A stretch of DNA of 64,000 nt from Clostridia bacterium (lineage in GTDB: Bacteria > Bacillota > Clostridia > Oscillospirales > CAG-272), in contig JAFTXE010000059.1 of the NCBI GenBank assembly GCA_017461745.1, positions 7,304-71,303 on the forward strand, given 5' to 3'. Below, piece after piece: positions 41,091 through 64,000 of the stretch. Numbering within the stretch: position 1 is the stretch's first letter; each line of letters begins with the position of its first letter. A model generated the notes under the pieces. That model was given only the letters and a program-made list of their open reading frames with translations. It ran no database searches and was not told where the DNA came from. The position numbers were made by a program, and so were the translations under genes.

Positions 41091-41342
41091 ATGTCTAACA
41101 AGAACGTAGTACCTGAGGCTAAGGAAGCTCTTAACAAGTTTAAGATGCAGGCTGCAAGCGAGGTCGGTGTTAACCTCAAGAACGGTTACAACGGCGACCT
41201 CACCTCTAAGCAGGCAGGAAGTGTCGGCGGTCAGATGGTCAACAATATGAACCCCGTACGAACTATGAAATTCGACCGCCCAAGCCGTGTAGCTAAGGGG
41301 CATATGGTAAGCGTGCGGTACATATTTTCGTTAACAGTGTGA
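41091..41342 (+). pseudogene. Alpha/beta small acid-soluble spore protein gene with the conserved C-terminus replaced after codon 50
   Basis: RBS aggag. Codons 1-50 are canonical (VPEAKEALNKFKM..ASEVGV..GYNGDLTSKQAGSVGGQMV); the next 33 aa are unrelated to SASP. Confidence 0.8.
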
Positions 41343-41344
41343 TA

Positions 41345-41384
41345 ATTTAATCCCCCAAGGAAAACTTTCCTCGGGGGATTAAAT
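41345..41384. terminator. Strong bidirectional hairpin
   Basis: atttaatccccc (41345-56) pairs with gggggattaaat (41373-84), with an inner aggaa/ttcct stem. Confidence 0.8.
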
Positions 41385-41419
41385 CATTATAATCTAAATC
41401 TTGTATTAATCTCAAGAAG

Positions 41420-42577
41420 TTACAATCCTATTCGTTCCAAAAGCTCGGTTGCGCTTTCCTTTTTATCGTCAGACATCTTAGCGTTAACGTTTATTTCGTT
41501 TATTGACCGTTTAAGTCCGCCGCGAAAAATAAGCTTAAACCATCGACGCACCTGCATTACGGGTGTCAGCCAACGGTGCTTTTGCAGTATTGGATAGTGA
41601 AATTTTATTGTACTATACGGTAAGAAAATTCTTGATACGATGTACTTAAATTTTCCGCCTTTTTTCTGTTGCTGAAGTGCAACGCGGTTCTCCATATTGC
41701 CGTATACTCCGCCAAACAGTAAATATTGCTCCATCTGCGACGTGGTCTCTGTATGCTCCGCACCGTTAAACCATACTGACGCTAAGCTACGCGCGGCATT
41801 GGTAAATTTCAAAAGTGCTCCACTCTCAAGCAGTGCGTCTCGGGCAACAGCATCATACCCTTCTTGTTTATCAAGTATCCAAAGGTCAAGTAATGGTCGG
41901 ACTCCGCATCCACCATGTTCAAAGTGTTTTGCCATATGGGCAATATGATAGAAATAAAACATAGCGTCCGAAAAATCACAGCGATAAGTGCCTTCAGATA
42001 TCGGAGCGGCATAGTCCCAAGCGTTTTTTAGTATCTCGCAACAGTTATTTACTATATCTTCTTCCACAAGGTCGTAATGCAGTTCAACATGAACCCCACT
42101 CGGTGAAAACATAGAAACGTCGTGCGAACCTTTACCTTCAACATCATAACCCAAGTCGTCCTGTATACACTTTGTCGCTCTGTCTAAGTCCTCGGGTCTT
42201 ACCAACACGTCGATATCACAGCTTGTTCTCATCCAAGGCTCCGGATAGTACTTACGTATTATAGAGCCTTTAAGCGGTATAAATTGTATTTTCGCGTTTT
42301 CAAGTGCAGTACAGATTTCCTCAAGCTCATAGTTTATACGCTCGTATCTGAAAATGGCTATCATATGCTGCTTACGGAATTTCTCGCTTATCTCGTCTCC
42401 ATTCTTAAGCAGCCCCTGAGCGTCAAGCTCTGCCGACACTATATGAGCCATATCGTGCGACTTGGATAACCCGTACAGAGAACGCATTACCTCCTCGGAT
42501 AATTCTCCGTATTCTACTCTTTCGGCACTACAAACCTGAGTACGTATTGCCGAGAGCATTATTTCCGTTACAGTCAT
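41420..42577 (-). CDS. Nucleotidyltransferase family protein (NTP_transf_5-like)
   Basis: FIPLKGSII, RTSCDIDVLV, HVELHYDL, HMAKHFEHGGCGVRPLLDLW. Confidence 0.85.
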   Translation of the reverse strand: MTVTEIMLSAIRTQVCSAERVEYGELSEEVMRSLYGLSKSHDMAHIVSAELDAQGLLKNGDEISEKFRKQHMIAIFRYERINYELEEICTALENAKIQFIPLKGSIIRKYYPEPWMRTSCDIDVLVRPEDLDRATKCIQDDLGYDVEGKGSHDVSMFSPSGVHVELHYDLVEEDIVNNCCEILKNAWDYAAPISEGTYRCDFSDAMFYFYHIAHMAKHFEHGGCGVRPLLDLWILDKQEGYDAVARDALLESGALLKFTNAARSLASVWFNGAEHTETTSQMEQYLLFGGVYGNMENRVALQQQKKGGKFKYIVSRIFLPYSTIKFHYPILQKHRWLTPVMQVRRWFKLIFRGGLKRSINEINVNAKMSDDKKESATELLERIGL

Positions 42578-42717
42578 ATTGCGTTCTCCTTCCAAAACAA
42601 TTTAATCTCTGAAACACAAATCGCTCGTATGAACCTTGTCTATATATTCACTATACTATGTATTGGTGAACTTGGTATGTATATTTCGTTTTTCGTACAA
42701 ACATGCTCGTTATTTGA

Positions 42718-43731
42718 TTATATTGTTTCTATCACATTAGAAACAATCCACTCAAGTTCTTCCCATTTGCGTTCAATATCCTCTGCAAGTTTCAACTGAC
42801 AACGGGTGCGAACGAGGTTATGCTTAGGATACGCACATCTGAAATACTGATCTCCTGTGATATAGTCATCCAAAAATCTTGAAGCAAGTTCAATCGTAAT
42901 GGAAAAAGTAGATTTAACCAAATTAGTGATTTCAACAGGTTCAAGTGATTTGTGTGTAGCTCCGATAAATCCTTTAGCAAAAGCACGGAATTTTGCGGTA
43001 TCGAAAAATACTTTCGATATATCTGGCTCATCTTCCACCGCAGTATTTGCAATAAAACGAACCGCATCTGCAAAGTCATACATCGACATACCAGGCATGA
43101 TTGTGTCAAGGTCAATTACAACAATAGGTTCCTTGGTTTTTCTGTCAAAGAGAACATTGTTGCACTTAGTATCGTTGTGCGTAACTCGTTTAGGGATTTC
43201 TCCATTTGCGAATTGTACGCTGAGTTCTGTCGCTTTCTCACGTACGGAAGCAATATAGTCTAACTCTTTCTTAACTTCTGCTACTCGCCCGCATAGATCA
43301 TCGGCAACATGAGAAAACAACGTATCAAGTCTCTTTTTAGTGTTGTGAAAATCGGGAATAGTTTCGTAAAGAACCGAACCATCGAAATCCGAAAGCTGAG
43401 TCTGAAAATCGCCGAATGCTTTTCCTGTCGCTTCAATAATACCGAAATCATCGGAAGCGTTGAATGTTACGGAATCAACGTAATTTACTACTCGCCAAAA
43501 CGCATCTTTCTCATACAAATAATAGTTCAAGCCTTCATCTGTGTGATGGAAATGAAGCGTTATCTGATCGGGATATTTACTGCGAATAAATGTTGTTACA
43601 CGGTCAATGTTTTCCATAATCTCAATAGGATTTTTGAAAATATTCGTGTTTACTCTTTGAAATAAATAGGATTTCAATGAGTTATCTCTTTGTATATATG
43701 TAACTTTGTAGGTGGAATTGATATTTCCCAT
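42718..43731 (-). CDS. APH-family sugar kinase (N-acetylhexosamine 1-kinase-like), 5' end apparently frameshifted
   Basis: GNINSTY, FQRVNTNIF, TIPDFHNT, VTHNDTKCNN, VIDLDTIMPG, YPKHNLVR. Confidence 0.8.
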   Translation of the reverse strand: MGNINSTYKVTYIQRDNSLKSYLFQRVNTNIFKNPIEIMENIDRVTTFIRSKYPDQITLHFHHTDEGLNYYLYEKDAFWRVVNYVDSVTFNASDDFGIIEATGKAFGDFQTQLSDFDGSVLYETIPDFHNTKKRLDTLFSHVADDLCGRVAEVKKELDYIASVREKATELSVQFANGEIPKRVTHNDTKCNNVLFDRKTKEPIVVIDLDTIMPGMSMYDFADAVRFIANTAVEDEPDISKVFFDTAKFRAFAKGFIGATHKSLEPVEITNLVKSTFSITIELASRFLDDYITGDQYFRCAYPKHNLVRTRCQLKLAEDIERKWEELEWIVSNVIETI

Positions 43732-43802
43732 GGTACTGACATCGTATGAATATATCTCACAAGGTTCGTCCTACTTCAGTTAATATCAAATACATCGTTA
43801 CC

Positions 43803-44894
43803 TTACGCCTCTAAAATATCTGCAATTCTCTTGCAAGCCAAACCGTCGCCGTAAGGATTACTTGCCTTCGACATTGCTTCATAAGCAATCTGATCTTCAA
43901 GAAGCAATTTGAAATTTTCATAAATAATCCGCTCGTCAGTACCGACTAATTTCAGTGTTCCTGCCTTGATGCCTTCTGGACGTTCCGTTGTATCACGCAT
44001 AACAAGGACAGGCTTGCCCAAGGACGGAGCTTCTTCCTGAATCCCTCCGCTATCTGTCAAGATCATAAAGCTACGAGATAGGAAGTTATGGAAATCCAAA
44101 ACTTCAAGAGGTTCAATGATATGGATGCGATCACAATCACCAAGTTCCGCATCAGCAGCTTGGCGTACAACAGGGTTCATGTGTATGGGATAGATCGCCT
44201 TTACATCGGGATGCTCGTCCATAACACGGCGGATTGCACGGAACATATTGTGCATAGGTTCACCAAGATTCTCACGACGATGTGCCGTAATCATAATCAA
44301 ACGGCTATCTTTCGCCCATTCCAATTCCGGATGCGTGTAATCATCACGCACGGTTGTTTTTAGTGCGTCAATTGCCGTGTTACCGGTGATATAGATGCTA
44401 CTCTCATCCTTGCCCTCTTTCACAAGGTTTGCTTTTGAAAGCTCGGTAGGAGCAAAATTGTACTTGGATATAATAGAAACTGCTTGACGGTTAAATTCTT
44501 CCGGATAAGGACTGTAAATATTGTATGTACGAAGTCCTGCTTCCACATGACCGATTGCGATCTGCTTGTAGAAGCACGCAAGAGCCGTCACAAAGGTGGT
44601 AGATGTATCACCATGAACGAGAACCACATCGGGTTTTACTTCATCGAGTACATCTCCAATTCTATTTAAGATGTTTGTTGTGATGTCAAACAAAGTCTGT
44701 CCGGCTTTCATTATGGAAAGATCATAATCCGGTACAACATTGAATGTATCAAGTACCATGTCAAGCATCTGACGATGCTGACCTGTTACGCATACAACTG
44801 TCTTGATATTTTTTCTGGATTTCAACTCATTCACGAGCGGACACATTTTGATTGCTTCGGGACGTGTTCCAAAGACGAGCATTATTGTTTTCAT
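43803..44894 (-). CDS. wecB: UDP-N-acetylglucosamine 2-epimerase (non-hydrolysing)
   Basis: VFGTRPEAIKMCP, TGQHRQM, HGDTSTT, HVEAGLRT, TAHRREN, TDSGGIQEEAP, NPYGDG. Confidence 0.97.
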   Translation of the reverse strand: MKTIMLVFGTRPEAIKMCPLVNELKSRKNIKTVVCVTGQHRQMLDMVLDTFNVVPDYDLSIMKAGQTLFDITTNILNRIGDVLDEVKPDVVLVHGDTSTTFVTALACFYKQIAIGHVEAGLRTYNIYSPYPEEFNRQAVSIISKYNFAPTELSKANLVKEGKDESSIYITGNTAIDALKTTVRDDYTHPELEWAKDSRLIMITAHRRENLGEPMHNMFRAIRRVMDEHPDVKAIYPIHMNPVVRQAADAELGDCDRIHIIEPLEVLDFHNFLSRSFMILTDSGGIQEEAPSLGKPVLVMRDTTERPEGIKAGTLKLVGTDERIIYENFKLLLEDQIAYEAMSKASNPYGDGLACKRIADILEA

Positions 44895-45547
44895 TTGATT
44901 TCTTCTCCAATCGTATTATTGCTATTAAGGAATTGTATATAATCAATCTCATCCATATATCGTTTTGTAGAAAATAGGTGTTTATATTTAAAAACTTTAC
45001 CGTTTTTATAATTCTTATCAAAAATATTATGTGTTACAATGTTGTTATCATTACTCGGATTCTCATTAGTAACCAATAATTTGTTTGGGTAAGGTATTTT
45101 TTGGAACTTTTGAATATATTCATCAGATATTTGTGCAATGTTTAAAATTATATAGAGATTAGAATAATCTATTCTTTTTTTCCTTTCATTCCATTTTTCT
45201 TTTGCTATATGAAAGTCGGTATAGTGCATAAACTTAATGTATACATCTTCACCGTTATACGATATTTTCCCAACTGGGAAATCATACCCCGAATTCTGTA
45301 TCTCCACAACATCTGATTCCATATATTCCGGCAAATTCATTACCATTTTAATAAAATCATCTACAGAAAAAAACAAATTTATTGTGGGCGAGTTGAACTT
45401 TAATCCCATGTCATGATAAATAAATGTGCCAAAACAGTTGCTCGAAATGATAGTAGGGTTCAAATTAAGTAAGGATTTACTTTTTTTCTTGTGATATAAT
45501 GTTCCAGGCAATTGGATGATTTGCTTAATCAATAACGGTATCTGCAT
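44891..45547 (-). CDS. DUF1919 domain protein (polysaccharide-locus associated)
   Basis: TIISSNCFG, YHDMGLKFNSPTINLF, FPVG, IKFMHY, KWNERKKRI. RBS ggagg. Confidence 0.75.
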   Translation of the reverse strand: MQIPLLIKQIIQLPGTLYHKKKSKSLLNLNPTIISSNCFGTFIYHDMGLKFNSPTINLFFSVDDFIKMVMNLPEYMESDVVEIQNSGYDFPVGKISYNGEDVYIKFMHYTDFHIAKEKWNERKKRIDYSNLYIILNIAQISDEYIQKFQKIPYPNKLLVTNENPSNDNNIVTHNIFDKNYKNGKVFKYKHLFSTKRYMDEIDYIQFLNSNNTIGEEIK

Positions 45548-45630
45548 AGCTTCCTCCATAGGGCTAAATATCTTTTATACTAAAATATATTCTTTTCCGA
45601 TTATATTCTTTATTATTATATACAATCAAA

Positions 45631-47082
45631 CTAATTATTTCTTTTACTTTTTATTATATTATATAATAAAGTTTTCATATTGGCAAAAACACTATTTCTA
45701 GTTACAACAGATAATAGTATATAAATAACGCCACCCGAAACGACTTGAACAATCAACTTGATAAAATCATTGACGGGAATATAGTTCATCATATAAACAC
45801 AGCAAAACATAATGCATGATATGATAACGCTGGGGATAATATCCTGCATTTGTTCACGCAATGAATACCCCAACAATTTCACATTAGGATATGCATTAAC
45901 AAATGTAAATAGCGTTGTACATATCGCCATACCAATTACAATAGCTTCTACACTAATCCACATTGCAATCAACAAAACAATTAATTCAATAATCTTTTTG
46001 AATACTTCTAGTTTTAAATATATATCGCTTCGCCCCATAGCTTTTATAGCTTGAATATTTGCTACATGCATTGGTTGAAATAAATATATTACACAAAATA
46101 GTTGAAGCAACGGAACACAATCTATCCATTTATCTGTAAGCAAAAGTCTAACAAAGGGAATGGCAACAGCTGCCAAACCAAGCATAACCGGGCACATAAT
46201 ATAGGAACTAAACCTAATTGAATTACGTGTTGTCTCTTTTAGCTTTGTTATATCATCCTGCTCATCTGCCATTTTGGGAAACAATACAGAACTTATTGAG
46301 GTATTAATATTTGTTACAATTAAATTAGGAAACTGTCTTCCTTTATCATAATATGCTAAATCAGATGACGAATAAACTTTACCAATAATAAGTGCCCTCA
46401 ACTCTTGGTACCCTGTCATTAGCATTCCTGTTCCTAAAATCCTAATACCATATGGGAAAAGTTGTCTTAAAGAAGATATGGAAAAACAGATTTGAGGCTT
46501 CTTTTTTATGACAACCATCAAACTGAAAGTACTAACCGTTGTACTAACCAAGTATTGTGTAACCAACGCCCAAACGCCGTATCCAAGGTAAGCCATCGCA
46601 ATTCCAATGACCGCAGATGATATTGTTCCCCATAGTGTAGCGAAGAAAAACTTTTGGAACATCATTTTCTTTGAAATGTATGCTTGCTGTACAGAATTAA
46701 TTGCCGTAAAAACAATTCTTATCCCAAGCACACGCAAAATTGGAGTTAATATTTCATACCCTTCACCATAAAACACAGAAATATACGGAGCTGAAATATA
46801 TATAATCAAATACAGCAACAAAGAAAAACCGATATTGAAATACAGAACAGAAAAGAAATCTAATGCGGTAGCACCCTTCTTTTGAATCAATGCACTTCCG
46901 AAACCATCGCTAACAAAAACATTAGCCAACGTTATGAATATCATAACAATTGAAACAACACCATAATCCTCCGGAGATAATAATCGTGCAAGAATTATTG
47001 ACACAATCATTGATATAAGTTGAGCAGAAATTCTTTCCCCAAATTTCCAAGCTAAATTCGTTATTAAACTGTTTTTTTTCAT
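45631..47082 (-). CDS. wzx: Wzx-type flippase
   Basis: 483 aa multi-TM protein. ILARLLSPEDYG, DGFGSALIQKK, LIIGKVYS, FPKMA. Confidence 0.9.
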   Translation of the reverse strand: MKKNSLITNLAWKFGERISAQLISMIVSIILARLLSPEDYGVVSIVMIFITLANVFVSDGFGSALIQKKGATALDFFSVLYFNIGFSLLLYLIIYISAPYISVFYGEGYEILTPILRVLGIRIVFTAINSVQQAYISKKMMFQKFFFATLWGTISSAVIGIAMAYLGYGVWALVTQYLVSTTVSTFSLMVVIKKKPQICFSISSLRQLFPYGIRILGTGMLMTGYQELRALIIGKVYSSSDLAYYDKGRQFPNLIVTNINTSISSVLFPKMADEQDDITKLKETTRNSIRFSSYIMCPVMLGLAAVAIPFVRLLLTDKWIDCVPLLQLFCVIYLFQPMHVANIQAIKAMGRSDIYLKLEVFKKIIELIVLLIAMWISVEAIVIGMAICTTLFTFVNAYPNVKLLGYSLREQMQDIIPSVIISCIMFCCVYMMNYIPVNDFIKLIVQVVSGGVIYILLSVVTRNSVFANMKTLLYNIIKSKRNN

Positions 47083-47128
47083 ATTTCCTTATCACTTATC
47101 TCTTTATACTGATATTTCCACGCAAATT

Positions 47129-48331
47129 CTATTTGCTGTGTTTTTTTTGAACAAAACGAATCAATTGTCTTCTTATTATGTTAGGAAGTAAACACCATAT
47201 CTTACCTTTCCAGGAAAGTTTGTATTCAGATGCTTCACAGCACCATTTTGAAATTGCTCCTTTTTCGTTGCTAATAAAATCCGCGAAAAAATCATCTCTA
47301 TTATGAGCAATCCATGTTTGCCTATAGAACAATGGATTATGTTCCTTAATATCATCAATCGTGCATGAATACATAACCATGTTCTTTTTCAGTTGTTCCA
47401 ACAACAGATTTCCTTTTTCTGTGTGGATAATAATAGAAGAAAAATTGCGTTTTGAAAGATACAATTTGGGAAATACCTTACTTACCCCCTTAAAGTCAGC
47501 AATCGTAATATCACTTACTCTGTTTTCAATTCGGAAATGACAATTTCCGCCACAAGAAGGTCTTAAACTAAGTTGCTTCAAAAACAATTGCATATATGGG
47601 TCATTTTGAACTAATAATTTATTACCATTGTCACTCGTGATTTTTTGAAGATGGTCTGTTTCATAAACTCGTCCTTTTGCTCGAAATTCATAACCGACAA
47701 TATTATTTTCAAACTGTTTCGAAAGGCTATTTACACAAGCTTCAAACACTTTTTGACTACCAACACCATGGCAGATTAAGTCAATCAGTAATAAATTTTT
47801 ATCTTGATTTCCAATATATCGCTTTAAACCAGCAACTTGACAAGGGGTTCCACAAAAAACAACTTTTTTTCCACCTTTTAAATACTGCTGAATTTCTGCA
47901 AATACATTCTCCGGATTGCTCGCAACATATTTAGACTTGCATAATGCAGCGATATTACGAACGCCTTTTACGCAAACATGATGTACTCGCAAACCATCCC
48001 AAGCAGCTCCACATATGATTGTTTCGTCATCTCCGAAAGCTTTACAAATTTCAGAAAATGCACCACCGCTGGCACTACGTTTCCAAATACGATATTTTTT
48101 GGTAACCGCACACCAAGCAGACTTTTGAAAAGCCATCCCCCCTTCTTCTACATTAGGAGTAGCTATTGGACAAATTCTTTTGCATTTTTCACAATGAATG
48201 CATTTTGGGGATGCGGTAGGGTATAAAAAGCCTTCTTCATCAGGCTCCATTTTAATACACTGAACAGGACAAGCAGCGTAACACGCAGAACACCCCATAC
48301 AATTAGATTTTTCTTTTGTAAAATCTAACAT
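47129..48331 (-). CDS. FrhB-like (F420 hydrogenase beta family) Fe-S protein, copy 1
   Basis: CMGCSACYAACP, CIHCEKCKRICP, SASGGAF, KSKYV, GTPCQ, LICHG, SDITIADF. Confidence 0.85.
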   Translation of the reverse strand: MLDFTKEKSNCMGCSACYAACPVQCIKMEPDEEGFLYPTASPKCIHCEKCKRICPIATPNVEEGGMAFQKSAWCAVTKKYRIWKRSASGGAFSEICKAFGDDETIICGAAWDGLRVHHVCVKGVRNIAALCKSKYVASNPENVFAEIQQYLKGGKKVVFCGTPCQVAGLKRYIGNQDKNLLLIDLICHGVGSQKVFEACVNSLSKQFENNIVGYEFRAKGRVYETDHLQKITSDNGNKLLVQNDPYMQLFLKQLSLRPSCGGNCHFRIENRVSDITIADFKGVSKVFPKLYLSKRNFSSIIIHTEKGNLLLEQLKKNMVMYSCTIDDIKEHNPLFYRQTWIAHNRDDFFADFISNEKGAISKWCCEASEYKLSWKGKIWCLLPNIIRRQLIRFVQKKHSK

Positions 48332-48333
48332 TT

Positions 48334-49413
48334 TTATAACAACGCCCTTTCTAAGTAGCTATGCGAAAGAATTCTAGCATCCTCTAATTTTTTTTCAATG
48401 TCGTGATAATCGATTCTCTTACATTCGTCTATCAATTTATGCTTGTTTAAAAATCTATCGCTAATATTAAACCATCTGTCCAACTGATAAATTCTTGAGT
48501 TCTGATTTATTGGGTCATCTATACCGAAGCGTTCAAAAGTAAAAAATTCTTTCTCAAATAATAAAGAAAAAATCGTTCCATGATAAGAATCTGTGAATAC
48601 AACTTCTGCATGATGGATAAGCCACAAAAATTCCAAAGGACCCATGCCGTCTAACGTTTCAATCCAGTCACTATCAGCTGGATTAACAGAAACACCCACA
48701 ACCTTCAATTTATGCTCCATCGCATATTGATATATTTGTTCTCTATAATCGTGATTTTTATTTAAAAAGTAACAGAATATATACTTTCCCACAAAACCCG
48801 TAGGTTTATTCTCCATCTTTTCATAATGTTCCTTGGACAAAAGAAGAGTTGGATCCAAAACTACAGTTGATTCAATATTGAAATTATCCTTTAACAATAC
48901 TTTTCCTGCTTCTTCTCTAATCGAAATATAATCAAAATCACACAAACAACTTTTATAGGAATCATGTAGATGCTCTGGGATTTTTTCCAATCCAATACTT
49001 GGTGCATACGCCACTTTTCTCACTTTTTTATTATCTATAAAGTCCAACATGTAAGAAGTATCTAATACATTAGGTGCCCATATTTGGTCACTACCGCAAA
49101 CGATAATATCAAATTTGCAATTTAGACCACTAAGTTCTGACTTAGGGACAAATTCTGTTAAATTTAAATATTTTCTATCAAACCTGAGATAATGATACCT
49201 TCTTGTAGGAAGAAAGTTATATGGGAAAATTTGCATTATCCTGCCAATCATACATTTGAGTCCGTCAAACTCGCTAACATCATTATTGTTAGTCTTATAA
49301 TTGATAATTTTTACATCATCACAATATTGGGTTAAAATTGTACTAATAGCATATGCCTGCAAGGAACCACCCAAATTATGGTGATGATGCCAAGTAATAA
49401 CGCCTGCTTTCAA
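48334..49413 (-). CDS. Polysaccharide pyruvyl transferase family protein, copy 1
   Basis: NLGGSLQAYA, CGSDQIW, AYAPSIG, ISIREE, LDPTLL, TDSYHGTIFS. Confidence 0.88.
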   Translation of the reverse strand: MKAGVITWHHHHNLGGSLQAYAISTILTQYCDDVKIINYKTNNNDVSEFDGLKCMIGRIMQIFPYNFLPTRRYHYLRFDRKYLNLTEFVPKSELSGLNCKFDIIVCGSDQIWAPNVLDTSYMLDFIDNKKVRKVAYAPSIGLEKIPEHLHDSYKSCLCDFDYISIREEAGKVLLKDNFNIESTVVLDPTLLLSKEHYEKMENKPTGFVGKYIFCYFLNKNHDYREQIYQYAMEHKLKVVGVSVNPADSDWIETLDGMGPLEFLWLIHHAEVVFTDSYHGTIFSLLFEKEFFTFERFGIDDPINQNSRIYQLDRWFNISDRFLNKHKLIDECKRIDYHDIEKKLEDARILSHSYLERALL

Positions 49414-49471
49414 ATTGACAATTCCTTTCTGTTATGCTTATAAGCAATCAATCATTTTTAAGCCGTTTCTA

Positions 49472-50596
49472 TTATAACATTAATATTTCCTCGATTGCTT
49501 TAATCCATTGCTTTTTCCATCGTTCATGAGAAAATGAACAATTTACAGTTTTATATGCATTATTAGCAATATTTCGTCTATATTCTGGCTTATCAATCAA
49601 TTCGCTTATAGCTTCATTTAATTCTTCTACTTCTGCCGAACGAACCATTATACCGTTATATCCATTTAGAATGATATTGGTCATACCGCCGACATCTGTA
49701 CAAACCGGTGCGCAACCTGATGCCATAGCTTCTAACAAAGAAAGTGAAGTCCCTTCCGACCCGATTGTTGGCACTACAGCAATATCTTTGTCTGAGTGTA
49801 TTGCATAGCTCTCATCTGCTTCATACTTTATAAAACTTACATTAGCAAATCTTTTCAACCTATCTTTCATCCAAATTTCGTCAGGACCTTCTCCTGCGAT
49901 AGTAATTTCGATATTCGGATATTTACACAATAGTTTCTCGGCAACTGCAGTAAATACTTTTGTCCCTCTATATTCTTGAAGACGTCGTGCAAATAAGATC
50001 CTCACAATTTCACCATCGCTTTTTCGGGGGAACGGCACTGTTTTTGCAAAGTTTGGTATGCAAACATATTTTGTCCCAATACTATGGGTTTGCGTTCTAA
50101 ACCAATTCATATAGTTATAGTCAACGCATACAAGGTAATCAATCATAGATAGAATTTTCTGTTCGGCATATGAGTCTCTTGCTTTATTAATTGTGTTTTT
50201 AAGCATTTCTAACCTACTCAATTGACCCTTTGAGACAATATCTCTACCTATACCATGTTGAATAGAAACAGCTACGTTTTTGTATTTTTGTATAATGAGG
50301 TTTTCTGTTGCGTACAAAATAATGTCATTCTCTTGCAGCATACTCTCTAATTTTTTGTTTAGTTTGACAACCTTTTTTTCGGGAGTAAGCTTGTCGACAT
50401 TAACGCCAACAACCTTAGTACCATTAAATACAACTTCTTTATCTTCCTTAGAGTACTGTATAATAATTGGCAATAATTCACATTGTTTAATGACACTCAC
50501 CAAATTATGCAAATATGTTTCAATGCCGCCAATATTCAATTTTGACATTGAATCGGCATCCAAAAATAATCTTGCTAAAATAATCACTCGTCTCAT
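49472..50596 (-). CDS. GT4 family glycosyltransferase
   Basis: ILFARRL, IAGEGP, SEGTSLSLLEAMASG, TDVGG. Confidence 0.88.
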   Translation of the reverse strand: MRRVIILARLFLDADSMSKLNIGGIETYLHNLVSVIKQCELLPIIIQYSKEDKEVVFNGTKVVGVNVDKLTPEKKVVKLNKKLESMLQENDIILYATENLIIQKYKNVAVSIQHGIGRDIVSKGQLSRLEMLKNTINKARDSYAEQKILSMIDYLVCVDYNYMNWFRTQTHSIGTKYVCIPNFAKTVPFPRKSDGEIVRILFARRLQEYRGTKVFTAVAEKLLCKYPNIEITIAGEGPDEIWMKDRLKRFANVSFIKYEADESYAIHSDKDIAVVPTIGSEGTSLSLLEAMASGCAPVCTDVGGMTNIILNGYNGIMVRSAEVEELNEAISELIDKPEYRRNIANNAYKTVNCSFSHERWKKQWIKAIEEILML

Positions 50597-50630
50597 ATTA
50601 TTTCCCTACCTTTTTATTACGAAGCGTTTG

Positions 50631-51626
50631 TCAACCTTTTCGCTTCGTATACCAGTAGATAAACCTCCATAGTTCCCACTGAATGAGCTTGTACTTGAAT
50701 TTTGTTGAAGATGATTTTAGGTTTCTATAAAAATTAACTCGTTTGTATTTTTTGTCAAATTGTAGATATTCGCGAATCAAACTAATAAATTCTGTATAAC
50801 TTTGAGATTGTAAGGCAAAATCGTGTGTGAGTACCCAAATTGAGGAAATATAGTAATGAGCTATATTCTCCAAGGGGTAAATGCCAATGTTTTCAATTTC
50901 ACTTTTAACATTCGTGACATTCACTAGGTCATAGGGCTTTCTCACATGTGTCATCGATTCGATATTTTCCCTATAAAAGTAACCAGAATAGTGAATAACA
51001 CTAACATTTTGTGTTTCATTTAAAATTAGAGCTGTTAAAAGTACATCTTCTCCGTTTTTAATTGTATTTGGTACTAACTTTTGGCTTTTTATATATATTT
51101 CGCGTTTTACTGCTTTGGACCATATCGAGTATAGTAAGCAACCAGAATTATCTGAAGCAGACGATGCATTGTAAAAATAATTAGAACTAATTTCTGCAAT
51201 ATTGGTATATATACCAACCTTTAAAGGTGGAAGTACCGGTTCAGATTGTTTTATGCCATAATCAACCGTGTATCCATAGCATATCATATCAACCTGAGGA
51301 TTGCGTTCAACTTCAGCGTTCAATTTGCTAAATAAATCTACATTTAGATGATCATCCCCGTCTAAACACACGATAAATTCACCTCTAGCAACAGCCGCAC
51401 CTGCCTTGCGCGCACTAACTAAACCACCATTGGGTTTATCAACAACAATAATACGATTTGGATATGCACTTTCATATTTTCTGCATATTGATAACGAATC
51501 GTCTTTTGACCCATCATTTACTAGAATCAATTCATAATCCGTGAAGCTTTGATTAAGTACCGATTCTATACATTCTGTCAAATAAACAGAAACATTATAA
51601 ATCGGGACAACAACTGAAAATTTCAT
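50631..51626 (-). CDS. GT2 family glycosyltransferase
   Basis: SVVVPIYNV, VNDGSKD, NGGLVSARKAG, CLDGDD, GEDVL. Confidence 0.9.
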   Translation of the reverse strand: MKFSVVVPIYNVSVYLTECIESVLNQSFTDYELILVNDGSKDDSLSICRKYESAYPNRIIVVDKPNGGLVSARKAGAAVARGEFIVCLDGDDHLNVDLFSKLNAEVERNPQVDMICYGYTVDYGIKQSEPVLPPLKVGIYTNIAEISSNYFYNASSASDNSGCLLYSIWSKAVKREIYIKSQKLVPNTIKNGEDVLLTALILNETQNVSVIHYSGYFYRENIESMTHVRKPYDLVNVTNVKSEIENIGIYPLENIAHYYISSIWVLTHDFALQSQSYTEFISLIREYLQFDKKYKRVNFYRNLKSSSTKFKYKLIQWELWRFIYWYTKRKG

Positions 51627-52780
51627 TACACATACACTCCCAACTTACGCAGAATAAAAGCCTTCCAATGCTTTTGAGAAAATTGTTTCTGCATGTATTC
51701 AGCACCATACATTTTCCACTCCGTTAACACATCATAGTCCATTTTATTTTTATCAAACGGCTGTTTTAGTTGCTCATTAGTTTTGGCTACGCTTTCAAAA
51801 TTACTTTTGCTGACATCAAGGAGTTCACATGCTAAATCGAAAAGCTTCTTCCCTTTTACGGTCTGAATCAAGATTGCTGAAATCCCCTTATCTTTGGGCA
51901 AACTTCCCTCATATCCCCAAAAATCTCCTATAGTTAAATCGGATTGACGTACCGATTTTGCAAACATACAAGAATAACAATTCTCCCTGAAAATTTTACC
52001 AGAAAGGAAATGATTATAATAATATGACAACGAAGGCGTTGTATAATATCGTTTTTCTTTTACTGTCCCATTTTTTAAAGTATATCTAGCAGTATATCTA
52101 GCAGTAAAAGAACGCTTTTTATCTTTGTTTCTAAAGGAAAAGTCTGTAATTGTGCAGTTGTGTTTCGTCTGCAATAATTGAATATAATCACGCCAATAAG
52201 GCTGTTCAATAACACCGTGGCAAATAACCTCCACGGTATATAGCAAATCGCAGTTTTTTTCACCAACAAACTGTTTGAGAGCAGCACATTGGCAAGGTGT
52301 CCCAGAAAATAACACTGGAACTCTATTTTTTAAATCATTTTGAACACAGCAAAAAACTTCTGGTTGGATTGAACTTTTAATATACTTTGATCCTTGTAGC
52401 CTGTGCAATTCACCCAAAGCATTTACTCGAATATGTGTCGGCATCATTTCGCTATTATATGTACATCCATAAACAACTCCATGTAATCGATTGATAAACG
52501 ATTCAGCCAAAGCGGAAAAAGCCCCTCCAGATGCACTTTTCATATGCGTATCTCTATTTTTTACAATTCCAGCATATACTTGGTCAACATTGCTAAAAGA
52601 AATATTCTGTTCATATATACAAACCTTATTACACTTGCCGCAGTCTATACACTTACTTGTATCAACCCTAGGGAACAGATTCCCGTACTCATCCTCAATT
52701 TTATAAATTGCTTTAGTGGGACAAGCGGCTTCACAGGCAAAACATCCACAGCATTTTTCTTTGTTCAGTATATTAATCAT
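51626..52780 (-). CDS. FrhB-like Fe-S protein, copy 2
   Basis: CCGCFACEAACP, CIDCGKCNKVC, SASGGAF, GSKYI, GTPCQ, VICHG, SDLTIGDFWG. Confidence 0.85.
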   Translation of the reverse strand: MINILNKEKCCGCFACEAACPTKAIYKIEDEYGNLFPRVDTSKCIDCGKCNKVCIYEQNISFSNVDQVYAGIVKNRDTHMKSASGGAFSALAESFINRLHGVVYGCTYNSEMMPTHIRVNALGELHRLQGSKYIKSSIQPEVFCCVQNDLKNRVPVLFSGTPCQCAALKQFVGEKNCDLLYTVEVICHGVIEQPYWRDYIQLLQTKHNCTITDFSFRNKDKKRSFTARYTARYTLKNGTVKEKRYYTTPSLSYYYNHFLSGKIFRENCYSCMFAKSVRQSDLTIGDFWGYEGSLPKDKGISAILIQTVKGKKLFDLACELLDVSKSNFESVAKTNEQLKQPFDKNKMDYDVLTEWKMYGAEYMQKQFSQKHWKAFILRKLGVYV

Positions 52781-53843
52781 TCTTCAAATTTTCCTTTAGA
52801 TACTCAATTGTACGCGCCTGTTCTTTGGCAATTTGTTGATTGGCATAGTCGAAACTGATTTTGGAATCAAAAATTTCGCCTATTTGATTTACTTTCTGCA
52901 ATTGTCTGCTCTCTAAGCCAAAAAAATTCAGCAAAGCTATGAGTTTATTTTTATTGGAGTCGCGTATAATTGTTACAAATTGTTTGTTTCGTTTGATAGA
53001 AATTACAGTACCATGAAATGTATCTGTAATTACATAATCCGCATGATCAAAATACGATAATAATTCAAAAGGTTCGCACAAAATATTTTTATCGCACCAT
53101 CTCTGATATACGCCGCAGCTAATTAGTGTTTTTCCTTCTCTCTTAGCAAACTCTTTAATCGCCCTAATTTCCTGTTCGTTATTGATTCTATTATCGTATG
53201 AATAAATAAGAATATAATTCTTAGGATAAGTATCAATATCTTTTACATTCGACCAATCGTAAACCAATACGGGATCCAAATGTACGAATGGCTTAATACC
53301 AGTAAGTTGTTCAATACAATCAAAAGAGTTTTTATCTCTAACAGAAATACTCTTTAATTTTTTTAAAGACTTTGCAACGTTCTCCGTCAAATGATATTGT
53401 TTTAAATTATCATAAGATGTGTGTCCAAAGGAACCAGCATATGAAATTGCTGGAACCATTGTATCGCCGAACAACTGTAATGAACACCCCCACGAGGATT
53501 CCTGGCAACAGTTAAACACTTCATCCGAGCCTATGATAATCATATCAACTTCTGTTTCATCAACAGGATGCGATATACCAATATCATTGAACATCTTTTG
53601 GGTAAATAATAAACATCTATTTTTTTCAAATACCACATGTTCAATTCTTTTGATAATATGCTTCCATGGCTTTTGCTTAATCAAGCTTTGGGAAAGTGTA
53701 TCAAAGTTTAACTTTTCACCATTTCTTATATCAACAAAAAATGCTTCGTGTCCCAACCCCTCAACAAGAGATTTGAGTGCATATGCTTGTAAAAAAGAGC
53801 CATAATTAATCACGCGTTGCATTGATAAAATTCCGATTCTCAT
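52773..53843 (-). CDS. Polysaccharide pyruvyl transferase family protein, copy 2
   Basis: NYGSFLQAYA, IGSDEVFN, SYAGSFG, SISVRD, LDPVL, TDTFHGTV. Start placed at MRIGIL after gggagagg. Confidence 0.88.
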   Translation of the reverse strand: MRIGILSMQRVINYGSFLQAYALKSLVEGLGHEAFFVDIRNGEKLNFDTLSQSLIKQKPWKHIIKRIEHVVFEKNRCLLFTQKMFNDIGISHPVDETEVDMIIIGSDEVFNCCQESSWGCSLQLFGDTMVPAISYAGSFGHTSYDNLKQYHLTENVAKSLKKLKSISVRDKNSFDCIEQLTGIKPFVHLDPVLVYDWSNVKDIDTYPKNYILIYSYDNRINNEQEIRAIKEFAKREGKTLISCGVYQRWCDKNILCEPFELLSYFDHADYVITDTFHGTVISIKRNKQFVTIIRDSNKNKLIALLNFFGLESRQLQKVNQIGEIFDSKISFDYANQQIAKEQARTIEYLKENLKND

Positions 53844-53916
53844 CAAACCTCTCCCTTTATTTACCATTTTGTCATAAAAATTGCAACTATGTATATCATA
53901 TTAAGCAAATCATTTT

Positions 53917-55164
53917 CTATATAAATAGTAAACCAAACCAGTATTGGGCACTAAATGTAGATACCGTAGTGGCACCGATTATTAGTATCAATTTGATTAT
54001 TAGCATAACTTTAAAATTATTGGTTTTATAATACTTTTTTAACCGCTTTAACTGTACATAAAACATCGCGAATAAACCTAAAACTCCGCTATAAATTAAA
54101 ATGTCAAGATATGAATTATGTGAATACTTGCCAACTAATTCGTCATATCCGAGCCAGGCTTTACCAAATACTTTTTGAATAAGATTTCCGTCTTTGAACA
54201 TAGCAACATACGCATTTGTTAATTCTGTTCGTCCTGTTGTAGCATCATTCAAATCACCATATTTTATCGAATTAACCATTGAATCTACCCTCAGCATTAT
54301 TGGTTCCATAAACGAAATGTTCGACAATTGCGAAGCAATTATTATAATGACACATATGGCACAAAAAACGGTTATAACGCCTTTGAGCGTTACTCTTTTC
54401 AAATTAATATTTGAAAGAATATAATATCCTATTACGCCAATATATAAAACTACCGCAGTTAAACTAACAGAAAGCAATACAATAATAGAAATTATAGCAA
54501 ATACAACCCATTTACTTATATTCTTTTTCATAAAATATAGTGGATAAAGTAATGCTATACATCCGTATAATGAAAATCTGCTTGTTCCAAGTGTTCCATA
54601 CAACTGTTTCACATAACCAAATCCAGGTATCCATCTTAAAATAGAAGTACCTTCACAATATCCATAAATTGTTCCCTCTATAAAACCTATAAGTATCATC
54701 AACAATATTGTTTTTAAAAATGCTTCTCCTTCCTCACTAGTACTGGATATCAGTTTGTGAAAGATAATGCAAGAAGCGTAAAAGTATACACAAATGCTAA
54801 CTCCCGTTAATGTTCCATACAGAAGAAAGTTAGACATTCCTATAACTAAAAATAATAAAAGGAAGAAGATTTCATATGCATTTAAGGACACTTTTTTGCA
54901 AAAAAACGTGTATTTCACAACAAATAATACACTTATTATCAAAGATAATGTAATTCCAAAAGAAAAAACCGCTTCTAAACACCAAACAAAAGAGAATATA
55001 TACATCATTAATGTTTGATTGATTGGGGCAATACAAAAAATACCGATTGCAAACAAAAGAATTATATCGTCCGGTACAATTCTCAACGCAAAAACAAAAA
55101 ATAAAATTACAAAGCCATATAAAAAACCATATGTTTTTTTTGTTTTTTCAACCATACAACTCAC
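53917..55164 (-). CDS. wzy: Wzy-type polysaccharide polymerase (O-antigen ligase-like)
   Basis: About 11 TM segments, TTGRT and SHNSYLDIL motifs, very AT-rich. Confidence 0.7.
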   Translation of the reverse strand: MSCMVEKTKKTYGFLYGFVILFFVFALRIVPDDIILLFAIGIFCIAPINQTLMMYIFSFVWCLEAVFSFGITLSLIISVLFVVKYTFFCKKVSLNAYEIFFLLLFLVIGMSNFLLYGTLTGVSICVYFYASCIIFHKLISSTSEEGEAFLKTILLMILIGFIEGTIYGYCEGTSILRWIPGFGYVKQLYGTLGTSRFSLYGCIALLYPLYFMKKNISKWVVFAIISIIVLLSVSLTAVVLYIGVIGYYILSNINLKRVTLKGVITVFCAICVIIIIASQLSNISFMEPIMLRVDSMVNSIKYGDLNDATTGRTELTNAYVAMFKDGNLIQKVFGKAWLGYDELVGKYSHNSYLDILIYSGVLGLFAMFYVQLKRLKKYYKTNNFKVMLIIKLILIIGATTVSTFSAQYWFGLLFI

Positions 55165-56099
55165 TTTCCTTTGCGTTTTCTAACAATCATATACAACCTT
55201 GGTGATATCATGAACAATAAACATCTCATCTTGTTGTAAAATGTTTTGGATGTCTTTATTAATAAATCTTTATCGATGTAATCTTTGTAGTTTTCTCTTT
55301 TATACTGAAAAATATCAGTTTCATAAAATTGGCTAAGATACCCATTACATATTTCATTTTTCAAAATATCTCTTGTACACTTGTTTTTAAGACTGTTTGA
55401 ATAGTGCAACAAACTATAACTAATATCTATAATATCCTTCAAATTTTTTCTTTTATCTTTGTGCGTAGTTATTGAATCTTCTCGAACATATCGTACATAA
55501 AAATCTATATTTGAAAACACAATACTATTAGCCTCTATATATGCTCGAGGAGTAAACTCATTATCTTCATGGAATTTGCCAACCATAAAATTCAAACCAC
55601 ATTCACGCAAGAAATTTCTTCTATACGCTGGAGCAACTGCACAAGCCAATATGCTATCAATAAAAAGTGTATAGTATTCTTCCCCTCTATAGATCTTCCC
55701 TGGTATTGCTGCAGGAGTCAACGAAAATCTACTACAATCCTCGTTAATTAGACAACCTATGCAAATATCAACTAAATTTACGGTAAGTACTTCATTAAAA
55801 CGTTCGCAAGCATCCAATAATAACCAATCATCCGAATCAACAAATAAAACATATTCGCCAGTAGCAATTTCAAGACCTACATTTCTAGCATCTGACAAGC
55901 CTCCGTTTTCTTTGTGAACCACTTTAATTCTGCTGTCTTTTTTTACAAAATCATCACACAATTTGGGAGAGTTATCCTTGCTTCCATCATCCACCAAAAT
56001 AATTTCTATATTGTTATATGTTTGATTTATTAATGATTCAACGCATCGTTCAAGATAGGCTTCAACATTATAAACAGGTACGATTATTGAAAACTTCAT
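55161..56099 (-). CDS. GT2 family glycosyltransferase
   Basis: SIIVPVYNV, VDDGSKD, NGGLSDARN, FVDSDD, FHEDN. Confidence 0.92.
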   Translation of the reverse strand: MKFSIIVPVYNVEAYLERCVESLINQTYNNIEIILVDDGSKDNSPKLCDDFVKKDSRIKVVHKENGGLSDARNVGLEIATGEYVLFVDSDDWLLLDACERFNEVLTVNLVDICIGCLINEDCSRFSLTPAAIPGKIYRGEEYYTLFIDSILACAVAPAYRRNFLRECGLNFMVGKFHEDNEFTPRAYIEANSIVFSNIDFYVRYVREDSITTHKDKRKNLKDIIDISYSLLHYSNSLKNKCTRDILKNEICNGYLSQFYETDIFQYKRENYKDYIDKDLLIKTSKTFYNKMRCLLFMISPRLYMIVRKRKGK

Positions 56100-56128
56100 T
56101 ATTATATATTATCCTTTGCAAAAATATT

Positions 56129-56902
56129 CTATGCCTCATTCATTATGGTATAAATATGCGAAAAGCTACCCATATTTCGATACATATCATAGTGGCGGAA
56201 CAAATGACAAAGTATAGCCAGTTTATACCACTTAGGGAATAAAGTTTTATACAGAACACCTTGGTCAACAATTGATTTTTCAGTAACTCCATGATACCAA
56301 GTAGATTCCCGGTGTGTGACCTCTCCTATAGTTTCGCTTGACAAATAGATGTTCAGTCCTTTACGATAACAATCATAAAGGAAAATTGTATCTTCACCAT
56401 GGGAATACATTGCCCCGCCGCCAAACAGTAGAGAAAATGACAATCTGTTTCTTAATAAAGACATTCTTCTTGCTGTAATAGCGTATGTTCCGAATTTAGA
56501 TAGATCTCTAAAAGAGGCTTTTCCATTTTTTACATTAATATCTTTGAAAGATTCTTCTCCCCGGCGCTCTTTAAAGTTAAAAATTACAACATCTGCTTTT
56601 TTATTTTTTTTGTAATAATCTTCTATGATTTTAGAGTAACCCTTTTTATAAACGACATCATTATCAGCAAACACGACTACATCTGCATCTGATGAAAACA
56701 ATGACACGTTTCGATTGAGACCTACGCCCCTATCACTTCTGGATAGTATTTTAACCTTGTGTTTTTTGTGAACGAACATTTCTTCAGATATCGAATCTGT
56801 TTGATTTCCAATTATCATATCCGTTTCTAAATTCATATTCTCAAGATAATCGCTTTTCTCTCTTTCAAAAAACATAGTTGACATAAGTACTTCAATTTTC
56901 AT
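56129..56902 (-). CDS. GT-A fold glycosyltransferase
   Basis: IEVLMST, RGVGLNRN, FADND, FGGGAMYSHGED. Confidence 0.8.
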   Translation of the reverse strand: MKIEVLMSTMFFEREKSDYLENMNLETDMIIGNQTDSISEEMFVHKKHKVKILSRSDRGVGLNRNVSLFSSDADVVVFADNDVVYKKGYSKIIEDYYKKNKKADVVIFNFKERRGEESFKDINVKNGKASFRDLSKFGTYAITARRMSLLRNRLSFSLLFGGGAMYSHGEDTIFLYDCYRKGLNIYLSSETIGEVTHRESTWYHGVTEKSIVDQGVLYKTLFPKWYKLAILCHLFRHYDMYRNMGSFSHIYTIMNEA

Positions 56903-57911
56903 TTTTATCTTCCTTTCCATGAAAAATTGTTAAGGCATTATGCATTAAACCTTTTAGAGTACCTATCCCATAACTAATATGTAAAATAAAAAATAAGAAT
57001 GGCATACAAATTGAGTATAAATTACCATTGCCTTTAATCACCGTTAATAAAGCGCTCACCAACGTAAACAATCCATACGATGCCCACATAAGTGCTGAAA
57101 GTTGCCACATATCCAATAATGCTAGTAAACTTGTCACTACTATACCAAGTACAAAAGCCAAAGGCACTAAATGATATATCGAGATGCAACCGGGACAAAT
57201 CCCCAAAGTCAACCCAATCCAATAACCATTTCCATATTTCTGTTTTACCATTCTTGTCAAACTGCTTCTTGCATATTGAAAAGAAACGATCTCAGGATCA
57301 AAACACAGCTTATAACCCGATTTTCTAATACGATAATGCATTTCATTATCTTCAGTTCTAAGCAGATTTTCATTAAACAAACCAGCTTTTTCGAAAACTT
57401 CTCGTCTGTATGCTGCGTGAAACATAGATTTTACATACTGCTTTTCTTTACCATGTCGGCTAATCGCGATGCTACTTCCAAACAAAGAATTTTCTACTTC
57501 GAGTAAAGTGTTTTTCCATGCTGTTGGTTCCTCTATCACACACGGACGAACTCCACCAGTCACATACTCTCCACTCTCTTGAAGTTCCATATTCTTTTCT
57601 GTAAACTCTGCCGGAATATGCGTATGAGCATCAATTCGGATAATGACATCACCAATGGCATTGTTTATAGCAACGTTCCAACCCGCTGCCTGAATTTTCT
57701 TTGGGTTGTCCAACACTTTTACAGTCATAAAAGACACATTGCTTTTTTTGAAATCGTCCATTATCTCACGAGTTTTGTCAGTAGAACGCCCATCAACCAG
57801 CACAATCTCTGTTAACTCATGCGGATACGTTTGATTCGATAAATCCTTTAACAATTTTGGAAGAAACGATTCTTCGTTATAAGCAACTACACAAAGCGAT
57901 ACTGTCATCAT
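56892..57911 (-). CDS. GT2 glycosyltransferase resembling pneumococcal TacB
   Basis: VAYNEE, RIDAH, FGSSIA, RTEDNEMHYRIR, QKYGNGYWIGLT. Resemblance is recalled from memory, not searched. Confidence 0.8.
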   Translation of the reverse strand: MMTVSLCVVAYNEESFLPKLLKDLSNQTYPHELTEIVLVDGRSTDKTREIMDDFKKSNVSFMTVKVLDNPKKIQAAGWNVAINNAIGDVIIRIDAHTHIPAEFTEKNMELQESGEYVTGGVRPCVIEEPTAWKNTLLEVENSLFGSSIAISRHGKEKQYVKSMFHAAYRREVFEKAGLFNENLLRTEDNEMHYRIRKSGYKLCFDPEIVSFQYARSSLTRMVKQKYGNGYWIGLTLGICPGCISIYHLVPLAFVLGIVVTSLLALLDMWQLSALMWASYGLFTLVSALLTVIKGNGNLYSICMPFLFFILHISYGIGTLKGLMHNALTIFHGKEDKNEN

Positions 57912-58645
57912 ATCTCAATTTCCTCCTTTTCTGTGACGACCTCATAATCGCCCTTATATTCCTTCCCAAGCACTGCAAATACCGTCATGAACATAACATT
58001 TATATCGCTCCAAAAGCTGAACTGCTCCATTCCTTTCAGGTTATAATACATCTTGCCGGGGAGTATTTTTTCAATATAAACCTTGTCAGTATCCTCTACG
58101 CCGTCAAGCAATTCCGCTTCATCCTTATAGTAAACACTTGCAAGGCTAGTAATGCCCGCAGGAAGAAGCAACGTCGCCATCATTTCTGTTGTATACTGCT
58201 CTGTATATTTCGGTACCTCGGGACGTGTCCCTACAAACGTCATTTTTCCTCTAAATACATCAATGAGCTGACTTATCTCATCGAGACGACATTTACGAAC
58301 AAGCTTTCCGACACGAGTAACTCTCGCATCACCGCTAACCGTAACTTGCGAGCCCTTATCTGCATTCTGCACCATAGAACGAAACTTAAAAATCTTAAAT
58401 TTTTTATTATATTGCGTTACTCTAACTTGTCGATAAAACACTGGACCCTTGCTATCAATCTTAATTGCTATAGCTAAAATCAAGAACACGGGAGACAATA
58501 CAATGAGCATCACAGCAGATGCAAAAATATCAAATACTCTCTTAAAAAACAAACTTACCTTCTTTTTTTTCAGAATATCGTAATACTTTCTTACCTCTTC
58601 GGTTTGCATCTCCTTGGGAAGCTGCTCCCATTTTTTTAACATCAT
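57908..58645 (-). CDS. Priming phosphoglycosyltransferase (TacA/WcfS-like)
   Basis: KRVFDI, GPVFYRQVRV, KFRSM, RLDEISQL, FVGTRPEV, AGITSLA. Confidence 0.9.
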   Translation of the reverse strand: MMLKKWEQLPKEMQTEEVRKYYDILKKKKVSLFFKRVFDIFASAVMLIVLSPVFLILAIAIKIDSKGPVFYRQVRVTQYNKKFKIFKFRSMVQNADKGSQVTVSGDARVTRVGKLVRKCRLDEISQLIDVFRGKMTFVGTRPEVPKYTEQYTTEMMATLLLPAGITSLASVYYKDEAELLDGVEDTDKVYIEKILPGKMYYNLKGMEQFSFWSDINVMFMTVFAVLGKEYKGDYEVVTEKEEIEI

Positions 58646-62833: not shown

Positions 62834-62844
62834 ATCGGCTCACC

Positions 62845-63744: not shown

Positions 63745-63999
63745 CTACATTTTGCCGAGATACTCCGACAGATCGGGCTTGATACCGCTTTTTGCGGAGT
63801 CTATCTCAAGCCCCGTCAGAATTGCGAGCGTTTCGGTCTCCTGTCTGCATTTTTCCTTTGTCTCTGCGTCGGCGTTCTCGTCGTAGGCGATGATACTGCG
63901 GTCAAGCGCCGCGTTGGATATCTGACCTACACGGGATGAAAAGGTGTTTCGGATCGCCTCAAAGCGAGCGTACCAATCGTTTGCGTTATGGATCAGTGG
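63745..63999 (-). CDS. Hypothetical protein, 5'-partial (continues off the window)
   Basis: Open minus frame PLIHNANDWYARFEAIRNTFSSRVGQ...KPDLSEYLGKM* ending at 63745. Confidence 0.65.
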   Translation of the reverse strand, partial: PLIHNANDWYARFEAIRNTFSSRVGQISNAALDRSIIAYDENADAETKEKCRQETETLAILTGLEIDSAKSGIKPDLSEYLGKM

Positions 64000-64000
64000 C

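Follow-up and report, generated by a model that had tools for sequence, protein, structure and literature searches.

We propose, with high confidence, that the one alpha/beta SASP gene detected in this Clostridia genome is split by a 29-kb integrative mobilizable element, inserted by its own large serine recombinase (LSR). The insertion point would be the AA between codons V50 and K51, within the second DNA-binding helix. With attP placed in the 3'-terminal portion of the recombinase gene, integration would swap the C-termini of the two proteins: the SASP would lose 17 residues and gain the 33-residue tail of the recombinase along with a terminator, and the recombinase would lose this tail and gain the last 17 residues of the SASP, its stop codon and its terminator. 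The element likely moves as a circle, via LSR-catalysed attP x attB recombination, and is presumably mobilised by a helper conjugation system. Selection may maintain the tail, since the circle would encode a full-length recombinase that needs it, and the near-invariance of the GGQMVKKM-coding stretch across Clostridia probably explains the preference for the SASP gene. By far the most likely reading of the locus is a mobilizable element of the ordinary, hitch-hiking type that targets a specific gene.

The two junctions and the recombinase

Within the window, i.e. the whole stretch of 64,000 nucleotides that was analysed, the open reading frame at 41091..41342 on the plus strand encodes 83 aa. 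The Pfam family PF00269 (SASP) covers its residues 3-53, corresponding to profile positions 1-51 of 59 (E=3.8e-23); the match ends three residues beyond the GGQMV/NNMN boundary at 41240/41241 and, stopping at position 51, leaves out the C-terminal part of the second helix. The initial annotation had described a canonical SASP up to GGQMV (41240) followed by foreign codons, in agreement with what we find: the sequence is typical of clostridial alpha/beta SASPs to this point and then continues with NNMNPVRTMKFDRPSRVAKGHMVSVRYIFSLTV and a stop, adding 33 foreign codons. Canonical SASPs of most same-genus genomes end ...GGQMVKKM[VI]ESYENSIK...*, i.e. with the KKM[VI] continuation that the annotation had expected. 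The break is hosted by the second helix, where alignment to SspC (PDB 2Z3X) pairs it with GSVGGEITKRLV, and changes KK to NN. A search of the whole 2.54-Mb, 90%-complete assembly returned this interrupted gene as the sole SASP-family match.

The annotation had reported the missing 3' end as absent from the rest of the window. When the whole genome was searched in six frames, this end, KKMVESYENSIKNNTNA*, turned up 28,964 bp downstream, with contig and strand unchanged (G000:C31:77508-77561). This corresponds to window-equivalent 70205-70258 (window-equivalent = L032 + 62000 = C31 - 7303), 6.2 kb outside the window. There it constitutes the in-frame terminus of a large serine recombinase ORF of 576 aa, or 565 aa from the second ATG, the likely start. 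The proposal of a 3' half situated beyond 64 kb, beside a large serine or tyrosine recombinase, is thus borne out, and the distal half, whose absence had been named as grounds against a split gene, exists. The features of the junctions are as follows, those from 68528 onwards in window-equivalent coordinates and beyond the window.

41070-41075: SASP ribosome-binding site AGGAGA, retained ahead of the 5' part
41091..41240, plus strand: SASP gene 5' part, 50 codons, MSNKNVVPEAK...GSVGGQMV (Pfam; core aligns with the canonical SASPs of relatives)
41241..41242, plus strand: crossover dinucleotide AA at attL
41241..41342, plus strand: element left end, P' half-site AACAATATGAACCCCGTACGAACTATG and 33-codon tail NNMNPVRTMKFDRPSRVAKGHMVSVRYIFSLTV*; the hybrid SASP C-terminus carries ...GGQMVNNMNPVR...
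41331..41398, plus strand: terminator hairpin just 3' of the tail stop codon, 33-nt arms, 79% complementary
68528 (likely start 68561)..70258, plus strand: large serine recombinase
70205-70206: attR core AA
70205..70258, plus strand: SASP 3' part KKMVESYENSIKNNTNA*
70282-70320: the SASP gene's own terminator hairpin
Rejoined attB: ...CAGATGGTC AA GAAAATGGTAGAG...
Rejoined attP: ...GGTCACACGTCT AA CAATATGAACCCC...

The recombinase has the domain composition of an LSR, with an N-terminal resolvase catalytic domain (PF00239 Resolvase, 1e-28) followed by recombinase (PF07508 Recombinase, 2.8e-18) and zinc-ribbon (PF13408 Zn_ribbon_recom, 2.1e-12) domains. Its catalytic domain resembles that of 3G13, a recombinase from a C. 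difficile conjugative transposon (E=9e-40), and that of TnpX (2MHC, 3e-8). Searched alone, neither its C-terminal third nor the tail matched a significant Pfam family, and DUF4368 had no match in the ORFs searched. By sequence inspection, the gene is preceded by TTGCTT-17-TGgTATAAT, a housekeeping-type extended -10 promoter.

At attL the sequence reads ...CAGATGGTC AA CAATATGAACCCCGTACGAACTATG... (...ATGGTC AA CAATATG...) and at attR ...CCGTACGGGTCACACGTCT AA GAAAATGGTAGAGAGC... (...ACGTCT AA GAAAATG...). The AA is the sole sequence common to both, a 2-bp core as in LSR elements, and delimits an element of 28,964 bp (window-equivalent 41241-70204). In silico rejoining of the host flanks yields MSNKNVVPEAKEALNKFKMQAASEVGVNLKNGYNGDLTSKQAGSVGGQMVKKMVESYENSIKNNTNA, a 67-aa SASP in frame that aligns with SspC through residue 58. 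The element sits inside a sporulation-specific coding sequence that can be reconstituted frame-exactly, as in sporulation intervening elements. Exact look-up showed 12 contigs, all from other organisms, to encode an intact copy of the 67-aa protein. An intact gene, as the annotation had anticipated, is accordingly at hand in the contexts of other species, whereas no empty site of the same locus was recovered; the SASP loci of relatives showed no synteny within 1.5 kb. Rejoining of the element ends makes the tail an in-frame continuation of the recombinase sequence ...TARHRSRTGHTS, and because of this we take the tail as the native C-terminus of the recombinase and attP as lying within its gene. 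In the circular form, the hairpin at 41331..41398 would then serve as terminator of the recombinase gene itself. The two junctions, the AA core and the frame-exact rejoining uphold the earlier assignment of 41240/41241 as an att junction of a recombinase-borne element; the "29 unrelated residues", previously explained by an arm mimicking the target codons, are instead recombinase C-terminal coding sequence plus the P' half-site.

A natural counterpart of the rejoined form is found in a homologue (P0241, locus L033) with a contiguous recombinase-tail sequence, ...GHTL NNMNPIRTMNF..., on a 30.7-kb contig that lacks SASP pieces and whose ends do not overlap. Its attP arms are CGTATGGG/CCCCATACG as compared to CGTACGGG/CCCCGTACG here, a mirror-image change on both arms. 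In our reconstruction CGTACGGG occurs on both attP arms, equidistant from the core, and these imperfect inverted-repeat arms are predicted to be bound by the recombinase. We note that at L033 11690..11760 the tail of this sole natural attP-type copy has a 2-nt insertion, which makes the recombinase stop early (GHKGYL*), and that the remaining tail codons YTYSLTV* persist out of frame. Exact-pattern scans for attP gave 0 matches in metagenome contigs and 0 in genome contigs, and a tblastn search of plasmid and phage collections with the attP-form C-terminus returned no match. The 120 recombinases most similar to this one (84-91% identity) all have the C-terminus of a host-type SASP.

The P' half-site AACAATATGAACCCCGTACGAACTATG has almost no nucleotide variation. 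Across seven loci, tail codons 1-9 have no synonymous change; among the five lineages of these loci, four differ at 19-25 of the 45 third positions of the SASP core, and L025 at 9 of 45. This codon-level invariance fits a protein-binding half-site. Further along the tail, most variation falls on third positions, and the frame is never lost.

An assembly chimera is unlikely. Unitigs stop at 41232-41268, where SASP::element junctions of different organisms have k-mers in common, and contigs could in principle have been mis-joined at such a sequence repeated in the metagenome. Against this, the Logan unitig depths of the host left flank, the element left end and the attR unitig covary over a 5-fold range in three runs (11.1/10.1/10.8 in X1, 60-62/58.2/65.1 in X2 and 14.3-16/11.9/12.8 in X3), host-side unitigs extend 21 nt into the element, attR is bridged by single unitigs of 2.5-5.5 kb, and the two halves rejoin to a protein that exists elsewhere. 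We therefore consider a mis-joined junction, which the annotation had named as a possible pitfall, highly improbable. The excised circle, attB, attP and empty site of this strain are absent from the assembled unitigs, which drop rare variants.

Cargo and predicted mobility of the element

The element carries glycan-synthesis genes, putative defence genes and a mobilisation module. In the following list, positions beyond 64,000 are window-equivalent.

41420..59847, minus strand: low-GC glycan-synthesis cargo, ~18 kb, GC 0.30-0.39
60238..61959, minus strand: AbiH-family abortive-infection gene, 573 aa (PF14253, 2.1e-46; PADLOC AbiH)
61931..63726, minus strand: two ORFs of 300 and 293 aa, no significant family
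63745..65868 (L032 1745..3868), minus strand: 707-aa ORF, its 3' end (63745..64000) inside the window
66273..66674, plus strand: NikA/MobC-like gene, beyond the window
66511..68169, plus strand: MobA/VirD2 relaxase (PF03432), beyond the window
68227..68406, plus strand: 59-aa SHOCT-like ORF, no significant family

The GC content, ~0.45, falls to 0.30-0.35 between 44 and 58 kb, which marks foreign cargo. The run of minus-strand genes, earlier taken as a sign of the boundary, loses this meaning, since genes upstream of the SASP (11235-40846) are also nearly all on the minus strand. The glycan cargo comprises NTP_transf_5, an APH-like kinase, UDP-GlcNAc 2-epimerase, DUF1919, a Wzx-type flippase, a Wzy-like polymerase, an initiating sugar transferase (Bac_transf), a DegT aminotransferase and five to six glycosyltransferase genes (a GT1, four clear GT2 and one borderline GT2). 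Two paralogous pairs, at 47129-49413 and 51626-53867, each combine an FrhB/FdhB-like 4Fe-4S protein with a polysaccharide pyruvyl transferase, which suggests two pyruvylated (ketal) sugars in the repeat unit. Such a large glycan cluster is an unusual cargo for a mobilizable element, and some of the 29 kb may have accreted later. The 573-aa ORF at 60238-61959 was at one point suspected to be a recombinase, a candidate that was rejected as PF14253 identifies it as AbiH. Beside it, the 707-aa ORF matches eukaryote-type RNA-dependent RNA polymerase in its C-terminal 150 residues (PF05183, 2.1e-14) and has no PADLOC match; together with AbiH and the two family-less ORFs it may be part of an undescribed defence module.

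Among the element ORFs scanned, three of which lack a family, no T4SS or coupling-protein families were matched. The element has its own relaxase and a NikA/MobC-type accessory partner, with no conjugation genes, and is therefore classified as an integrative mobilizable element; from this gene content, mobility is predicted. No directionality factor was identified, the small 59-aa ORF upstream of the recombinase being without significant family. The element also illustrates that mobilizable elements with a serine recombinase can carry an entire surface-glycan locus together with an abortive-infection gene.

Spread of the element family and its secondary sites

We surveyed 301 species genomes of the order, each at least 90% complete. 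A SASP fused to the tail, or to a diverged version of it, is present in 21 of them (~7%), distributed over 12 families, and in 20 of these 21 no other SASP match was found; most genomes of this gut-clostridial order have one SASP gene. Recombinases 84-91% identical to the present one occur on hundreds of contigs from gut metagenomes, which points to recent horizontal spread. A search of 1.8 billion representatives with the tail alone also retrieved unrelated ORFs bearing it at their C-terminal extremity, namely an AbrB-like ORF, two other recombinase genes, a transposase, a tyrosine integrase and the small SHOCT-like ORF, and one match that is a fragment of another attP-form recombinase. The presence of the tail on unrelated genes therefore indicates an element family with one preferred target and secondary sites. 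The DNA 3' of the tail stop codon is different in every lineage, with type I restriction, TIR and AbiH genes, a glycan cluster or variable small genes as content. In G023, stand-alone tail DNA, distant from SASP genes, is followed by a TnpV gene, and a TnpV-type sequence as in G023 follows the tailed SASP of G011.

These data also bear on whether the tail is instead a genuine evolved C-terminal extension of a SASP subfamily, with no element involved. More than 120 database proteins of 83-84 aa have the tail at 77-95% identity, as such an extension would imply. Yet the canonical 3' end is present 29 kb away, joined to the recombinase, the tail also occurs on unrelated proteins and on the recombinase itself, and the DNA behind it differs between all lineages. 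An evolved extension is thus almost certainly not the explanation, and it was rejected given the canonical same-genus relatives and the stand-alone tail copy beside TnpV. The annotation had held that an extended C-terminus shared by relatives would speak against an interruption; relatives do carry one, but many independent insertions of one element family account for it.

Several further loci of the family deserve mention. At L022 (G023:C65, 3874..5100, minus strand) a related element lies in a non-SASP gene, with the junction ...ATCATCATTATA AA CAATATG...; behind its tail follow TnpV and an apparent toxin-antitoxin pair (99-aa and 107-aa ORFs, judged by eye), and the genome retains two intact SASP genes. 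At the P0030 loci (L029, L030 and L031, 6256..7200), which derive from strains of one species, 57 nt 3' of the tail stop are common to all, after which come a 107-aa ORF, a DUF3800 gene or nothing, and then a common HTH/agr-like block; the loci are likely a hotspot of cargo swapping immediately inside the element end. In P0335, P0331 and P0342 the tail is joined to N-terminal parts of other serine recombinases and of the small SHOCT-like ORF (...EKEYK|), and therefore elements of the family appear to integrate into one another, at sequences similar to the SASP target (AAGAAAATG). Finally, P0336 (99 aa) has a TnpV-like start (MKDTKTIYEQLGGTYREEKG) followed by a SASP with the tail, and is either an assembly chimera or an element/target rearrangement.

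Possible consequences for the spore and comparison with known systems

The alpha/beta SASPs are the chief protectors of spore DNA. Judged from its sequence, the hybrid SASP is probably impaired in DNA binding. It might still be a working spore protein, its basic tail partly replacing the lost C-terminus, so that the insertion would be near cost-free; this is compatible with the mobilizable-element explanation, and we deem it unlikely though not far-fetched. The hybrid retains 50 of 67 residues, the ribosome-binding site and a terminator, the net charge of the tail is positive by sequence, and insertions are common, affecting 7% of the species genomes of the order. Conversely, the break lies within the second helix and replaces the conserved KK by NN; mutagenesis in the Setlow laboratory reportedly indicated that the first of these lysines matters for DNA binding. 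An AlphaFold2 model shows no structure for the tail, at a low confidence (pLDDT 53) that renders it uninformative, and conservation of the tail is accounted for by its role in the recombinase, since it is intact at non-SASP sites as well. If spores are affected, an element family interrupting SASP in ~7% of the sampled species could alter spore UV and heat resistance, and hence host-to-host transmission.

SASP genes are expressed in the forespore. All published intervening elements, on the other hand, lie in genes of the mother cell, to which their excision is also confined (PMC4191935, PMC5595907), and therefore the mother-cell logic (PMC4191935) cannot apply unchanged to a SASP gene. A developmental switch would demand that the element is excised in the forespore during sporulation, rebuilding the SASP gene, and that the circle is retained, or integrates again at germination; which way the reaction runs could then be set by the exchanged recombinase C-terminus. 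The sporulation-specific target and the frame-exact rejoining are in agreement with such a switch, as is the absence of a second SASP match in 20 of the 21 tail-bearing genomes, by which SASP function would otherwise be lost. The genome also retains the SASP-specific protease GPR and two SpoVAC/SpoVAEB genes, and comparable speculation exists for phage Goe14, where insertion into spoVK truncates the serine integrase of the phage and might thereby regulate direction (bioRxiv 10.1101/2021.11.22.469490). However, the recombinase promoter is of the housekeeping-type extended -10 class with no recognisable sigmaF/G element, no directionality factor was identified, non-sporulation genes also host the family, all documented cases are limited to the terminal mother cell (PMC4191935), and forespore excision would strip the element from the germ line. 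We thus regard a developmental switch as very unlikely. Sequence inspection gave no sign of sporulation-timed excision, i.e. of a sporulation-sigma-dependent recombinase or directionality factor, with cryptic control being conceivable. The germ-line problem that the annotation had raised for an element in a forespore gene is fair as a concept, but finds no support in the promoter, in a directionality factor or in the range of sites occupied. The SpoIVA ATPase family had no match in the 90%-complete assembly; the gene may be in the missing 10%, or the sporulation gene set may be unusual, and because GPR and SpoVAC/EB are present we do not take this as a sign of a non-sporulating organism.

A functional C-terminal swap would go further. 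Integration would be driven by the full-length recombinase, which only the circle would yield, and excision by the SASP-tailed form from the integrated copy, and the very strong, forespore-specific SASP promoter would overproduce the detached recombinase tail joined to the SASP stub, thereby coupling the element to spore formation or germination. This is a long shot. If true, it would represent the first intervening element of a forespore, i.e. germ-line, gene, exiting and re-entering the chromosome across the spore cycle. The locus in any case puts to a natural test the rule that only mother-cell genes tolerate intervening elements, and the placement of attP within an ORF yields a defined pair of recombinase isoforms with which control of serine integrase direction by the tail can be tested.

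Returning to the favoured explanation of a hitch-hiking mobilizable element, the searched literature contains no description of SASP genes as integration targets, and several known systems lend themselves to comparison. The elements skin in sigK, SPbeta in spsM, gin in gerE and vfbin/vrin (PMC4191935, PMC5595907, PMC5025042) likewise carry a recombinase and reside in small sporulation-specific coding sequences, and precise excision would restore the reading frame. In particular gin, 28.6 kb and non-phage, is similar to the present element in size and character. In contrast, their targets are mother-cell genes and the present one is a forespore gene; moreover, no sporulation-type control was found for the present element, and its family also occupies non-sporulation sites. 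The SPbeta-like phage Goe14 shares a very short overlap, AAG there and AA here. It differs in being a phage of the 130-kb class whose integrase loses 131 aa, whereas the mobilizable element trades 33 aa for 17 aa, with both hybrid frames finishing at natural stop codons and terminators.

The clostridial LSR transposons Tn4451/Tn4453 (TnpX) and Tn5397 (TndX) have in common with our element a recombinase gene located at the edge, a Mob function and secondary target sites, and TnpV adjoins the tail end in the relatives G011 and G023, while the present copy is without TnpV. Plasmid-borne recombinases reach no more than 38% identity to the present one, which is only distantly related to TnpX. Unlike Tn4451 and Tn5397, the element strongly prefers one gene, and its cargo is a glycan cluster with a defence gene. 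The mycobacteriophages BPs and Brujita exhibit integration-dependent immunity, with attP within the repressor gene and a tyrosine integrase. As in these phages, integration within an ORF alters the C-terminus of a protein, so that its behaviour could change; there a tyrosine integrase acts and the repressor is altered, whereas here it is the serine recombinase itself that is altered, in which the exchanged C-terminus may have a functional effect.
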